Of a stretch of DNA of 61,740 nucleotides, positions 26,570 to 29,108 are shown one piece after another. Below the pieces are notes generated by a model that was not told where the DNA came from, made no database searches, and was given only the letters and a program-made list of their open reading frames with translations. Each line of letters opens with the position of its first letter. Positions within the stretch are counted from its first letter, which is position 1. This DNA comes from an uncultured Eubacteriales bacterium. GTDB taxonomy: Bacteria > Bacillota > Clostridia > Christensenellales > CAG-1252. A program made the translations under genes and the position numbers. The DNA lies in contig CADBTQ010000071.1 in NCBI GenBank assembly GCA_902797685.1, positions 1 through 61,740 of the forward strand, in the 5' to 3' direction.

Positions 26570-27046
26570 ATGAACTTGTTACTGGCAGTCGACAATAGCC
26601 TATACGTCCCGGCGTGGGTGGCGTTTTTTGTCGTGATGACCATCATCGGGTTTTGTATCATGCGGCTGGACAAAAAGCGGTTTGATCTGCAAAAAGCCCG
26701 CAGCGACCAAATGATGGCTCCGCGCAAAAAGGCGGGCGACCCCGACGAGGAAGTCCCCGAGGACGGCAAAAAGAAAAAGAAGGGCAAAAAACGCGCCAAA
26801 GAGGAAGTCCCCGAGGATTACGAGTACCAAGATCGCGTCCCCAACGGGGCGTTGATCGCCGTCGCCATCCTGTTGGGCGGCGTGGGAGAATTGCTCGCCA
26901 TGTTGATATACCGCCACAAGTGGTACAAATGGGCGTTCCGCACTTTTATCCCTATCCTCGCCGTGTTCAACCTCGCCGTGTTCGGCTTGCTCCTGTACGT
27001 CATACTGGAGATGGGCGCGGGCAACGCGTTGACGAATATTGTGTAG
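26570..27046 (+). CDS. DUF1294-like membrane protein with a charged insertion
   Basis: MRLDKKR...RVPNGALIAVAILLGGVG...YRHK matches the DUF1294 pattern; SD aaggag. Confidence 0.65.
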   Translation: MNLLLAVDNSLYVPAWVAFFVVMTIIGFCIMRLDKKRFDLQKARSDQMMAPRKKAGDPDEEVPEDGKKKKKGKKRAKEEVPEDYEYQDRVPNGALIAVAILLGGVGELLAMLIYRHKWYKWAFRTFIPILAVFNLAVFGLLLYVILEMGAGNALTNIV

Positions 27047-27047
27047 T

Positions 27048-27878
27048 ATGAACAAACCGATTGTCGCATTTTTGTACGATTTTGACAAGACCTTGTGTAC
27101 CCGCGATATGCAGGAGTACACGTTTATCCCTTCCATCGGTATGGAGCCCAACGACTTTTGGGCGCTTGCCAACGGATTGGCGCGGGAGCAACACATGGAC
27201 GGCGTGTTGGCTTATATGTACTGTATGCTCACCCGCACCACCTTGCGGCGCAACAATTTGGTCGACTGCGGCAAGGCGGTGGAATACCACCCCGGCGTGG
27301 AAGAATGGTTTGAGCGCGTCAACGCTTACGGAGAGGAAGCGGGGGTCAAGGTGGAGCACTACGTGCTGTCTTCGGGACTTAAAGAGATCATCGAGGGGAC
27401 GTCCATTGCCGATCGCTTTACCAAGGTGTTTGCGAGCGAGTTTTTATACGACGACAACGGTATGGCGGTCTGGCCCAAACTCGCGGTCAACTACACCAAC
27501 AAGACCCAATTCGTCTACCGTATCAACAAGGGCGTATTGGATATCAGCAACGACCGCGACCTCAACCGTTCGGCGCCCGACACGGGCAGACGGGTCAAGT
27601 TTAGCAACATGATCTACATCGGCGACGGATTGACCGACGTGCCGTGTATGAAACTGGTACGCGCCCAAGGGGGTCACGCGGTGGCGGTACACCAAGGGGC
27701 GAGGGCGCTGGCGAGCGACTTGATCAAACACTCGAGGGTGGACTTCTTTTTTGAGGCGGACTACCGCAAGGACAGCCCCTTGGATCAAGCCATCCACACT
27801 TTGCTCAGCAAATTGGCGCTCGACAACCGCGTGGCGGAACTGACTCACGCGCAGTTGGAAGAAGCGGAACAGGAGTAG
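27048..27878 (+). CDS. HAD-superfamily hydrolase
   Basis: YDFDKTL motif I, LSSGL motif II, NYTNKTQ, YIGDGLTDVPC motif IV. Confidence 0.9.
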   Translation: MNKPIVAFLYDFDKTLCTRDMQEYTFIPSIGMEPNDFWALANGLAREQHMDGVLAYMYCMLTRTTLRRNNLVDCGKAVEYHPGVEEWFERVNAYGEEAGVKVEHYVLSSGLKEIIEGTSIADRFTKVFASEFLYDDNGMAVWPKLAVNYTNKTQFVYRINKGVLDISNDRDLNRSAPDTGRRVKFSNMIYIGDGLTDVPCMKLVRAQGGHAVAVHQGARALASDLIKHSRVDFFFEADYRKDSPLDQAIHTLLSKLALDNRVAELTHAQLEEAEQE

Positions 27879-28139
27879 CGCGAACGCGTGTTCGCGCAGT
27901 GATATACGGCATTGCCGTGTGATATTCTGCCCAAGGGCAGAGTGATATTTATTCGCTACGCTCATAAGTGATATGTTGCCCGCATCCTTCGATGCGGGCA
28001 ACGTTTTGGAAGCCGAATAGATCCACCTGCGGTGGGTGAAATCCATGCAGGACATGGGTGAAATCGGCGATTCCTCCGGAGAAATCCGCACGCTGTGCGG
28101 GTGAAATCCTCCTTCGCCTTGCTCGGGTTGCGGTGATTT
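27878..28139 (+). repeat. Array of distinct short hairpins separated by a constant linker GTGATAT/GTGAAAT
   Basis: GTGATAT at 27899, 27919, 27942, 27968; GTGAAAT at 28036, 28058, 28101; GAGAAAT at 28079. Most intervening segments are different palindromes. Confidence 0.85.
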
Positions 28140-28170
28140 ATTTTTTATATTTGCTAACATATGCGAAATG

Positions 28171-28452
28171 ATATCAATTCCTATCCACAACATCCCGCAG
28201 GAATATATCGCATTCGGCTTGCCGAATATATCGCAACACAGCCCCCTTGTTCGGTGCAAGGGGGCTGTGTTATATCGCAAATCCCCTAAGGGATTTATAT
28301 CGCCGCGGCGGTATCTCGGGAAACCGCCGCTATCACGTCTTGCCGTGCATATCACCGCCCACTCGCGGAGCGAATATCACTCCGGTATCAGCCGGAATAT
28401 CACTTTTGCCTTGGCAAAAATATCACTTGCTCGCACGGCGAGCAAATATCAC
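28171..28452 (-). repeat. Oppositely oriented hairpin array with linker GTGATAT/GCGATAT on the minus strand
   Basis: ATATCGC at 28205, 28228, 28272, 28297; ATATCAC at 28349, 28374, 28397, 28420, 28446; the last linker contains the FNT stop codon. Confidence 0.85.
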
Positions 28453-29108
28453 TCTACCTTGGGCGGCTCTCGTCTAAGCAGGCGGTTAAACGTGGGGACG
28501 AGCAAACCGCCTACTATATTGCCTACGGTGACCAAAAAGATGAATAATACGCCTTTGCCGCTCCATACGCCGCAAGCGGACAGATAAAACATATCCGCCA
28601 CGCTGTGTTCGAAACCGCACAACACGAATACGCTGACCCCAAACAGTAGCGCAAGCGCCTTTTTCCATTCCTTGTCGAACGAGCGGTACCCTTCCACCGC
28701 CACATAGATGAGGATATTGCACAATATGCCAAGCAACACGATCTGCCACCACGGGGCGTCGATACGAGCGGTCAGTCCTTCCCCGTAAGCAGAGAGAAGG
28801 GAGCCGAATTTGTCGATATAGCGCACGATGCTGCCCACGGTCACAGCCCCGGCGAAATTGCCCGCGTAGATCACGACGAGGCGGGCGAGATAGACGGGCT
28901 TGTTGTCCCACACGTAGCAGATCTTGCCCGTAAACAAGTTGAGCCCCGCCACCAAAACCAAAAACAGTCCGACGCAAAAGAACAGACTACCCGCGATCTT
29001 GTTTTGGCTGGCGATATTGGCGATACCGCCCAACGCGATGGCGCCGCCCGCCAACACCGCTTTGTAAAACAGCGTGATCCACTCCATCCATCTATCCTTT
29101 CGTTCCAT
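28449..29108 (-). CDS. Formate/nitrite transporter (FNT) family protein
   Basis: AVLAG..IALG, LNLFTG, GNFAG, GILCN.L, FVLCGFEHSVADMF, GNIVGG. Confidence 0.9.
   Translation of the reverse strand: MERKDRWMEWITLFYKAVLAGGAIALGGIANIASQNKIAGSLFFCVGLFLVLVAGLNLFTGKICYVWDNKPVYLARLVVIYAGNFAGAVTVGSIVRYIDKFGSLLSAYGEGLTARIDAPWWQIVLLGILCNILIYVAVEGYRSFDKEWKKALALLFGVSVFVLCGFEHSVADMFYLSACGVWSGKGVLFIFLVTVGNIVGGLLVPTFNRLLRREPPKVE

Follow-up and report, generated by a model that had tools for sequence, protein, structure and literature searches.

In the 61,740-nucleotide stretch of DNA analysed here (the window), positions 27878-28452 separate two convergent genes, for a HAD-family hydrolase and a formate/nitrite transporter (FNT), and carry 17-18 heptamer linkers with short hairpins between them. 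The features of the locus are listed below.

27039-27878, + strand: gene for a HAD-family hydrolase (open reading frame; Pfam PF12710, E 2.4e-12), with the left arm as its 3' flank
27879-27896, + strand: hairpin with a 7-bp stem, directly 3' of the HAD stop codon, absent from other copies and outside the conserved alignment block
27899-27974, + strand: left arm, outer module, with four GTGATAT linkers, hairpins at 27906-27918 and 27926-27941 and a degenerate unit at 27949-27967
27975-28035, + strand: 12-bp hairpin (27975-28002), conserved spacer and hairpin (28023-28035)
28036-28107, + strand: left arm, inner module, with three GTGAAAT linkers and one GAGAAAT, hairpins at 28043-28057 and 28086-28100 and one degenerate unit
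28108-28204, no strand assigned: centre, which includes an AT-rich stretch and a conserved tail containing CTCGGGTTGCGG (28122-28133)
28205-28303, - strand: right arm, inner module, with four GCGATAT linkers and hairpins at 28212-28227, 28235-28271 (15-bp stem) and 28279-28296
28304-28348, - strand: long but imperfect hairpin at about 28304-28331 and a degenerate unit whose linker is shortened to ATCAC, as judged from sequence and fold
28349-28452, - strand: right arm, outer module, with five GTGATAT linkers, hairpins at 28381-28396, 28404-28419 and 28427-28445 and one degenerate unit
28449-29108, - strand: gene for the FNT (Form_Nir_trans, Pfam PF01226, E 3.8e-34), with the right arm as its 3' flank

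Hairpins and linkers of the locus

The word GYGAWAT occurs 17 times within 27899-28452, and 49 times in the whole 61.7-kb window as against a mean of 31.9 after shuffling. Eight of the linkers lie on the + strand (GTGATAT at 27899, 27919, 27942 and 27968; GTGAAAT at 28036, 28058 and 28101; GCGAAAT at 28163), together with the extra variant GAGAAAT at 28079, while nine lie on the - strand (GCGATAT at 28205, 28228, 28272 and 28297; GTGATAT at 28349, 28374, 28397, 28420 and 28446).

When hairpins were counted with a stem of at least 5 and a loop of 3-8, we found 13 perfect, non-overlapping ones spanning 240 of the 574 nt of the spacer, compared with a mean of 3.34 (sd 1.62, maximum 8) in 300 dinucleotide shuffles; all 11 palindromes listed in the original prediction are among them. 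Both arms also fold into unusually stable RNA structures, at -117 kcal/mol for the + arm (27879-28135, z -6.47) and -119.5 kcal/mol for the - arm (28190-28452, z -6.41), and in neither case was any of 200 shuffles as stable. The array itself is confirmed.

As had been predicted, the arrays start at the stop codons: a hairpin lies directly 3' of the HAD stop (27876-27878), the FNT stop codon TGA (28449-28451, - strand) falls inside the final linker of the right array, and each arm is in the sense orientation relative to its adjoining gene. The description of the units needed some revision. The constant 7-mer does recur, but it is better parsed, in line with the Rfam consensus, as two stem nucleotides, an unpaired GAW and two nucleotides of the next stem. 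Similarly, the hairpins are all different within the window copy, but the same hairpins occupy the same positions in other copies in the genome.

A dispersed mosaic repeat of the Gut-1 type

A match to an already described Rfam family, named in the original prediction as grounds for its refutation, was indeed found, and the family is the Gut-1 RNA motif (RF01706). A cmscan search gave five matches in the locus, at 44.1 bits (28369-28454, E 2.4e-7, in the right outer module), 39.1 bits (27868-27953, left outer module), 34.8 bits (27971-28069, left inner module), 20.8 and 20.8 bits, none of which reaches the Rfam gathering cut-off of 50 bits. In the source genome, there are 87 matches at E<=1, and six of them exceed the cut-off with scores of 52.1-60.4 bits, indicating that the genome has true Gut-1 members and that those of the window are divergent ones. 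The window alignments span model positions 1-77 fully and have GAU or GAA linkers; the model itself consists of hairpins closed by A-U/U.G pairs and joined by GAA. The spacer is one gene-less copy of a hairpin-rich repeat catalogued as Gut-1, and this type of array is not new.

The pages of Weinberg et al. (2010; PMC2864571) that tabulate the motif list Gut-1 as a human-gut ncRNA, give no function for it and rate it 'Y' for RNA, classing it as non-cis-regulatory and probably an ncRNA. The supplements of that paper may already mention the head-to-head layout or the gene context. A literature search on four linker words returned nothing relevant.

The source genome (98% complete, 1.78 Mb; denoted G000, with C-numbers for its contigs) contains at least six dispersed copies of a mosaic repeat of 600-750 bp, the window locus being one of them, and the six long copies share a common module order but have different flanks. 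Each module consists of 3-5 short, near-perfect Watson-Crick stem-loops with A-U and U.G (or A.C) closure and an unpaired GAW between them. The modules fall into linker classes (GCGATAT, GTGATAT, ATGATAT and GTGAAAT) and are joined into two opposed arms. Strict linker-hairpin-linker units number 184 in the genome versus 13-26 in five third-order Markov genomes, and arrays with at least three linkers number 78.

The modules of the window recur individually in this genome. The left outer module has homologues in C52, C6, C7, C9 and C79, the left inner module has eight homologous copies, and the three hairpins of the right inner module are found in identical order in C7, C6, C9, C41, C52 and C55. 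The centre (28108-28204) is shorter by roughly 130-160 nt than in the C7, C6, C9 and C41 copies, the missing part including an A-run/hairpin/T-run. It holds no terminator-like hairpin; unlike some other copies, the window copy has neither a terminator-like element nor an IVP gene (see below) at its centre.

In a nine-row alignment of the left arm with its paralogues, 10 of 39 base pairs were altered on both sides, and in the 12-bp hairpin at 27975-28002 (helix 3) compensatory changes affected 6 of 12 pairs. Overall, 95.3% of the cells were paired, against 88.0% in shuffles (0/500 reached the observed value) and 34-44% in slid controls. The expectation that structure and linker are conserved while the stems vary was therefore borne out, and the hairpins are position-specific across the repeat copies, their pairing preserved by compensatory changes.

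Copy number varies widely among relatives, with 0 to 59 Gut-1 matches in each of 24 genomes of the family. One relative (G006) has 15 near-identical copies of a module of roughly 140 nt, as seen at the three loci examined. Loci of HAD orthologues (12 from named genomes and another 7 from the same genus; 53-68% protein identity) are non-syntenic, and most have a plain terminator, while two have small, unrelated arrays. No target-site duplication was found at the arrays, which counts against spread of the repeat.

In three DNA sequencing runs, the Logan contigs break inside the array, where the summed depth exceeds the flanking depth several-fold. A joint from 28361 to 28448 in run X4 (one contig, 23 nt on one side) and a loose end at 28448 in run X2 that carries a different hairpin are too weak to be used as hints of strain differences. 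A single metagenome contig, 99% identical, reaches 78 nt into the array and shows no difference from it up to that point. Gut-1 repeats break short-read assemblies of gut metagenome-assembled genomes, so that contig ends at such places should be read with care.

Genomic placement and the link with IVP genes

According to our own, rather crude gene calls, 69 of the 78 arrays could be classified, and 54 of these 69 have a co-oriented upstream gene, in 44 cases no more than 150 nt away. The arrays begin 14-50 nt 3' of stop codons (median about 25 nt), in the sense orientation, and three overlap the stop codon. Where both flanks were called, 21 array-bearing intergenic regions were convergent, 13 tandem and 3 divergent, a clear convergent excess over the genome as a whole (193 of 1289 intergenic regions; p 5e-9). 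Neighbouring arrays are mostly head-to-head (21 +- pairs, against 5 ++, 4 -- and 1 tail-to-tail, -+).

An A-run/hairpin/T-run occupies the centre of 7 of 20 composites. The other 13 lack a terminator-like centre, which weakens the reading that we prefer (below). A strict terminator scan of the composite centres found none, because the A-runs pair with the T-runs. Within both arms of the window locus we did find a terminator-like hairpin followed by a U-rich tail, and a promoter scan of 27700-28650 gave only one promoter-like site, outside the array. In RNA run X2, assembled as Logan contigs that cannot show transcript ends, both genes were covered and the array had almost no depth.

Linkage to tRNA genes was seen for 8 of 16 loci in other families, compared with 1 of 78 arrays in the source genome. 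In those other families, the sense array lies after a strong terminator downstream of the tRNA genes and hence is not an obvious 3' UTR, another point against the preferred reading. Stem mismatches (12 G.U and 11 A.C among 870 stem positions, 97% of which are Watson-Crick) show no strand bias, a pattern as compatible with selection acting on DNA, or on the two strands alike, as with selection on RNA.

In many gut Clostridia, Gut-1 adjoins a gene for a small four-helix-bundle protein (IVP), an unexpected link.

The source genome has three genes for this Avd-like protein (23S_rRNA_IVP, PF05635; at C27:31705, C7:36072 and C88:11025), all of them next to or inside arrays. The window has none and hence does not itself belong among the IVP-carrying elements; we infer that its copy is an ORF-less derivative of such an element. 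In a class-wide sample, IVP genes were present in 26 of 29 Gut-1-positive and 25 of 120 Gut-1-negative genomes (odds ratio 33, p 6e-12, in a set where related genomes are not independent); counted by family, the figures were 15/15 and 11/47. The three Gut-1-positive genomes without IVP are G076, G100 and G176.

Among the Gut-1 matches listed, read by eye, 11 of the 58 IVP matches in genomes having both lay 45-358 nt from a Gut-1 match, and two of these 11 came from genomes (G188 and G136) in which Gut-1 matched only once. When 30 IVP loci of the family were fetched, 10 had arrays within about 300 nt and 20 had no array. IVP clades track the linker class across host families, and the order tRNA-terminator-Gut-1>-<Gut-1-IVP was seen in C27 of the source genome, in G182 and twice in G124.

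However, most arrays have no IVP gene nearby, which speaks against the link, and at 10 IVP loci from Gut-1-negative genomes we saw no comparable arrays, meaning that the link is not general to PF05635. The co-location could also arise from a shared preference for 'safe' intergenic sites. A crystal entry of the IVP family (2RLD) has five chains, and the IVP protein is a candidate partner for multivalent binding of RNA or single-stranded DNA at the linkers.

Interpretation and comparison with known systems

In our preferred reading, the spacer is a semi-selfish element in an ORF-less version and forms a putative structured 3' UTR. Put more fully, this copy of a dispersed, modular Gut-1-type repeat probably has sense arms that act as structured 3' UTRs and a linker that is recognised by a trans factor (IVP). 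Such an element would place copies of its blocks, each block being a module, an arm or a whole composite of 600-750 bp, in new intergenic positions 3' of genes, with the blocks being reshuffled at the linkers. The sense arm would be transcribed as the 3' UTR of its gene, as the arrays begin so close to the stop codons that there is no room for a terminator. The stacked hairpins should then form a 3'-end structure serving as an exonuclease barrier and/or a weak terminator (a hairpin, then GUGAUAUUUUU). The linker is conserved across many families of Clostridia, which we attribute to recognition in trans, the likeliest factor being the IVP protein of the complete copies. Against spread of the repeat stands the fact that no mobilising enzyme was found for it.

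Several features would also suit an RNA that purely serves the host, each arm being a selected structured 3' UTR or terminator with neither selfish spread nor a link to IVP: the sense orientation and the start 14-50 nt after stop codons, the compensatory changes in the stems, the terminator-like hairpin with U-rich tail in both arms and the lack of any transposase-type gene among those found. We nonetheless judge this unlikely, because two-armed composites also occur in tandem (6 regions) and divergent contexts, with one arm facing a 5' end, near-identical copies sit at unrelated sites, species differ in their counts (0 to 59), the tie to IVP genes is strong both in co-occurrence and in adjacency, and the stems have no G.U excess. 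The absent RAYT, an asymmetric linker conserved in place of the palindrome, the fixed orientation of the arms towards the incoming gene and the 'Y' rating for RNA in the published table (PMC2864571) likewise make it decidedly unlikely that these are DNA-level palindromes of the REP/BIME kind, that is, hairpins or cruciforms bound by a gyrase-, nucleoid- or replication-related host factor, with RNA as a by-product. That reading does have in its favour stems that are 97% Watson-Crick, G.T and A.C mismatches being equally common in them, the preference for convergent gene ends, the mosaic, head-to-head build and the arrays that follow terminators in other families.

An array pair placed after a terminator would need its own promoter, which, along with the published listing as a probable ncRNA without a cis-regulatory role (PMC2864571), would favour free-standing small RNAs with their own promoter and terminator, the arrays being tandem sRNA genes. 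This appears very unlikely given that arrays abut stop codons in the source genome, that the only promoter-like site in 27700-28650 lies outside the array and that 78 arrays in mosaic forms are present in 1.78 Mb. Finally, the original prediction had suggested a cassette array built unit by unit by an HUH/RAYT-, integron- or RT-type enzyme. The short constant linker between structured units and the block boundaries at linkers recall such a process, but the source genome, 98% complete, gave no match for Y1_Tnp (PF01797), RVT_1 or TnpB, its only two Phage_integrase matches (C73 and C16:22622, none on the window's contig) sit either on separate contigs or some 20 kb away from arrays, and neither of its two GIY-YIG matches is beside an array. 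Furthermore, each unit belongs to a particular position within a repeat and is not a unique insertion, and the polarity typical of stepwise addition was not seen, so that we regard this proposal as largely refuted and scarcely credible. Y1_Tnp does occur in 6 of 28 genomes of the family, its presence being unrelated to Gut-1 copy number.

Beyond the preferred reading of an ORF-less, semi-selfish repeat copy, a bolder and rather doubtful proposal is that Gut-1 arrays and IVP constitute one genetic system. Complete copies would encode IVP, which would attach to the 4-5 GAWAU linkers within a module, with the hairpins looped out, and be matched, clade by clade, to the linker class; hundreds of ORF-less arrays, that of the window included, would be the cis sites of an unrecognised RNA- or ssDNA-protein system. 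If true, this would make arrays and IVP together a small mobile element of a new type, or else a regulon-like 3'-UTR network read by IVP.

Both Gut-1 and the IVP/S23p protein family are orphans, the motif since 2010 and the proteins for longer. Gut-1 emerges here as a high-copy mosaic repeat that flanks about 3% of the genes of the source genome on their 3' side and accompanies IVP genes in at least 15 families of Clostridia. Both orphans thereby gain a concrete and cheap test, namely, whether IVP binds the arrays and whether the arrays set mRNA 3' ends.

As for known systems, the image of an 'inside-out CRISPR' proved misleading, because the variable parts are position-specific pieces of a dispersed repeat and not unique acquisitions. 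Constant and variable segments do alternate, as in CRISPR and integron arrays, but here the palindromes are common to several loci, and there is neither leader polarity nor an adjacent integrase. A CRISPR array was rejected on repeat layout alone (the constant part is 7 nt long, not a 23-50 nt repeat, and the 'spacers' are palindromes recurring elsewhere), and an integron cassette array on the lack of an adjacent IntI-type tyrosine recombinase.

REP/BIME elements keep their palindrome sequence, have a GTAG head and depend on RAYT. The arrays resemble them in being extragenic, at 3' ends or between convergent genes, mosaic and variable in copy number, with co-transcribed hairpins; in contrast, it is the linker that stays constant in the arrays, with palindromes that vary, and the search for a Y1 transposase gave none. 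REP/BIME with RAYT was discarded on these grounds (0 Y1_Tnp in the source genome; stems that differ by position, the conserved part being the GAWAT linker). CsrB/RsmZ and the (G/U)AG repeats bound by TRAP are multivalent protein-binding RNAs. They share with the arrays a short single-stranded motif, regularly spaced between or on hairpins, and would offer a possible analogy if IVP binds the linkers, a putative interaction; the arrays are unlike them in motif, in protein family and in genomic placement.

Intervening sequences of 23S rRNA with an S23p/IVP ORF, such as the Coxiella IVS, are described in the relevant part of one report (PMC4990558) as selfish elements excised by RNase III. As here, a small four-helix-bundle ORF lies in structure-forming flanks, and ORF-less relatives exist. 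The present element, however, lies outside rRNA, its flanks are local hairpin arrays and not one long stem, and most of its copies are ORF-less and follow protein-coding or tRNA genes.

The closest relative remains Gut-1 itself, with its tandem hairpins, A-U/U.G closure, 3-nt purine-rich linker (consensus GUGAAAU) and occurrence in gut Clostridia. The window copies differ from it in favouring GAU over GAA and in scoring 20.8-44.1 bits, below the cut-off, and the arrays described here have 4-9 hairpins instead of 3 and form the opposed arms of a dispersed mosaic of 600-750 bp.

Hairpin arrays between the HAD and FNT genes

The locus fills the 575 bp between two convergent genes:

27039-27878, + strand, HAD gene (PF12710)
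28449-29108, - strand, formate/nitrite-transporter (FNT) gene (PF01226)

This spacer holds eight GYGAWAT heptamers and one GAGAAAT on the + strand, and nine GYGATAT heptamers on the - strand; the first hairpin directly abuts the HAD stop, and the final heptamer contains the FNT stop codon. Among these linkers we counted 13 perfect hairpins, spanning 240 of 574 nt, versus a mean of 3.3 ± 1.6 (maximum 8) in 300 dinucleotide shuffles, and each arm folded ~30 kcal/mol better than its own shuffles (z = -6.47 and -6.41). Linker counts, hairpin excess and fold z-scores therefore confirm the heptamer-linked arrays seen in the original prediction. A 303-aa open frame (27444-28355, - strand) crosses the entire array and continues antisense into the HAD gene; it was rejected by a codon-usage caller and is most likely spurious.

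The feature is real, and its motif is already in Rfam. The array is not of a new kind: the Gut-1 model (RF01706, a tandem-hairpin RNA motif) gave five matches in the locus (44.1, 39.1, 34.8, 20.8 and 20.8 bits), all below the gathering score of 50 bits. In the Gut-1 consensus the heptamer falls into three parts: a GU that ends one stem, an unpaired GAA, and an AU with which the following stem begins. In this locus the unpaired triplet is mostly GAU, versus GAA in the consensus. Across the window's own genome (98% complete; 1.78 Mb in 95 contigs), Gut-1 matches at E ≤ 1 number 87, six of them exceeding the cutoff. According to Weinberg et al. 2010 (PMC2864571), Gut-1 is a probable non-coding RNA known from human-gut metagenomes only.

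A dispersed composite repeat and its distribution

The genome scan for linker-plus-palindrome units bore out their recurrence: a strict census of linker-hairpin-linker units found 184, versus 13-26 in simulated genomes, the main linkers being GCGATAT (57), GTGATAT (52), ATGATAT (25) and GTGAAAT (11). When the larger loci were compared side by side, the window locus proved to be a copy of a two-armed, 600-750 bp composite that is present six times or more.

Further arrays in the window's own genome, by contig (C)
C7:86440-87230, composite copy
C41:8010-8700, composite copy
C6:1-700, composite copy, contig end inside array
C9:1-710, composite copy, contig end inside array
C52:1-770, composite copy, contig end inside array
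C21:1-200, contig end inside array
C87:4086-4189, contig end inside array
C88:24348-24435, contig end inside array
C79:16400-16560, array with degenerate linkers (ATGATG / CATCAT, CATCAC)
C41:8620-8700, likewise
C78:10310-10420, likewise

The modules of all these copies follow one order: a GTGATAT block, a GCGATAT block, the centre, then an inverted GTGAAAT block and an inverted GTGATAT block. Hairpins described as all different are so within one copy, but between copies they recur at matching positions, in different flanks. In an alignment of the left arms of the window copy and eight paralogues, 95.3% of cells were paired (88.0% in shuffles, 34-44% in slid controls) and both sides had changed in 10 of 39 pairs, so the stems are maintained. 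Shorter forms also occur (single arms, single modules, and forms with other linkers, among them ATGATG and GTTAAAT); the degenerate-linker arrays are missed by the heptamer pattern used for counting. Several contigs start or stop within arrays, so the assembly is interrupted by these repeats and the copies counted are a minimum. In three DNA runs, too, Logan contigs break off within the window's array and accumulate over it, the behaviour a repeat should show. The window locus is an ORF-less copy of a modular palindromic repeat of Gut-1 type that is dispersed through the genome; from its centre some 130-160 nt are deleted.

The HAD gene has relatives in uncultured Clostridia (e.g., Candidatus Stercoripulliclostridium, Clostridium sp. 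CAG:914), and the window occurs in sequencing runs that carry bovine, sheep and rumen metagenome labels. Among 24 other genomes of the family, 17 had Gut-1 matches (counts over all 24 ran from 0 to 59), whereas 16 genomes representing the order's other families had none. A class-wide sample of 150 more genomes yielded 29 positives at E ≤ 1e-5, spread over 15 families. Many matches in the class sample are paired, + then -, ~100 nt apart, as in the window's genome. For the top-scoring pairs in other families, 8 of 16 loci (L081, L082, L085, L088, L090, L092, L093, L095) come directly after a tRNA gene with its terminator; in the window's genome a tRNA gene is near 1 of 78 arrays. The relative G006 has a ~140-nt module in 15 near-identical copies over three loci examined, which points to recent spread. 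At its loci L077, L078 and L080, Gut-1 modules are embedded among copies of an unrelated ~40-nt repeat (starting GTCATCCTGAGCG, finishing AGGATCTCATC); such genomes carry several interspersed repeat families.

Association with IVP genes

The first clue was a small ORF for a four-helix-bundle, Avd-like protein of the 23S_rRNA_IVP family (PF05635; IVP) within one composite, met among exceptions to the placement rule described below. All three IVP genes of the genome adjoin or lie within arrays:

C88:10500-11450, array, IVP, terminator, inverted arrays
C7:35890-36500, IVP between two arms
C27:31165-32037, tRNA-Ser, terminator, Gut-1 pair, IVP

The association extends to other Clostridia families. 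The C27-type order (tRNA, terminator, Gut-1 pair facing inward, IVP) recurs in G124 (twice) and G182, and in G152 and G003 direct copies of an array flank the IVP gene. Within the family, arrays lay within ~300 nt at 10 of 30 IVP loci fetched, Gut-1 and IVP counts correlated (Spearman 0.63, n = 25), and all eight genomes with at least nine Gut-1 matches had IVP. Across the class sample IVP occurred in 26/29 Gut-1-positive versus 25/120 Gut-1-negative genomes (odds ratio 33), or 15/15 versus 11/47 families. In genomes with both, 11 of 58 IVP matches have a listed Gut-1 match at a distance of 45-358 nt (tables read by eye); in two genomes (G188, G136) that Gut-1 match is the only one. Arrays of this kind were absent from ten IVP loci in genomes negative for Gut-1, and three Gut-1-positive genomes were without IVP; both count against the generality of the link.

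A tree covered just those 15 IVP proteins that have an inspected array beside them. Proteins beside GAAAT-type arrays clustered (support 90/82), as did both GTGATAT neighbours (88/91) and two ATGATAT neighbours (97/94); these groups cross host families, with small numbers and labels common to relatives. At G152 L100, an ORF downstream of the IVP gene and second array has a minimal-nucleotidyltransferase-like N-terminus (a single case, by eye); minimal nucleotidyltransferases are the kind paired with HEPN toxins. At L107 (G063) and L111 (G135), from a Gut-1-negative family, three small AT-rich tandem hairpins, homologous between both genomes, adjoin IVP genes and could be analogous to the arrays without being related to them.

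Placement and proposed mode of action

By our own crude gene calls, the genome has 78 arrays of at least three linkers (319 linkers), 69 of them classifiable once 5 overlapping a called gene and 4 with an upstream contig end were set aside. The upstream gene was co-oriented for 54 of the 69, and within 150 nt for 44 of these; arrays usually start 14-50 nt past the stop, and three overlap it. Neighbouring arrays are head-to-head in 21 pairs, tandem in 9 and tail-to-tail in 1. Of the intergenic regions concerned, 21 lie between convergent, 13 between tandem and 3 between divergent genes, against a convergent share of 15% among intergenic regions overall. Composites with both arms sit between tandem genes in six cases, so the composite moves as one piece, too. 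In 7 of 20 composite centres there is an A-run/hairpin/T-run resembling a bidirectional terminator. The centre of the window copy has none; its sole terminator-like sites are hairpins of the array with GUGAUAUUU after them.

Stop and array lie too close together for a terminator in between, so the sense arm would have to be transcribed, at least in part. We favour a repeat that would spread in blocks to 3' intergenic sites, be transcribed as 3' UTR and shape mRNA 3' ends, its conserved linker being recognized by a trans factor, with IVP as the best candidate. A less likely rival is that the arms are a purely host-serving UTR; placement past stop codons suits both readings, and movement of the composite as a unit speaks for spread. 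The arrays might instead be a DNA-level, REP-like element: stems are 97% Watson-Crick, and mismatches gave no strand signal, G.U (12) and A.C (11) being equal over 870 stem positions. Pointing the other way are the asymmetry of the linker and the orientation of the arms towards the incoming gene. The short distance from the stop also speaks against a third rival, a free sRNA, which the listing of Gut-1 as a probable non-coding RNA would suit.

The originally proposed cassette array, built by a structure-recognising enzyme, is nearly excluded. Y1_Tnp, RVT_1 and the TnpB zinc-ribbon domain had no match in the 98% complete genome, its two integrase and two GIY-YIG matches lie away from the arrays, and Y1_Tnp and Gut-1 counts over 28 family genomes showed no correspondence.

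We found no prior description of the mosaic, head-to-head, high-copy organization or its IVP association in the literature read for this analysis. The IVP protein itself matches PDB 2RLD, a five-chain entry (E = 8e-23). According to published work, PF05635 is similar to the DGR accessory protein Avd (PMC10053308), IVP genes are also found within cas loci and the family has a GxxRxxxSxxxNxxE motif (PMC3936711), and a Coxiella IVS with such an ORF is described as a selfish element that RNase III excises (PMC4990558).
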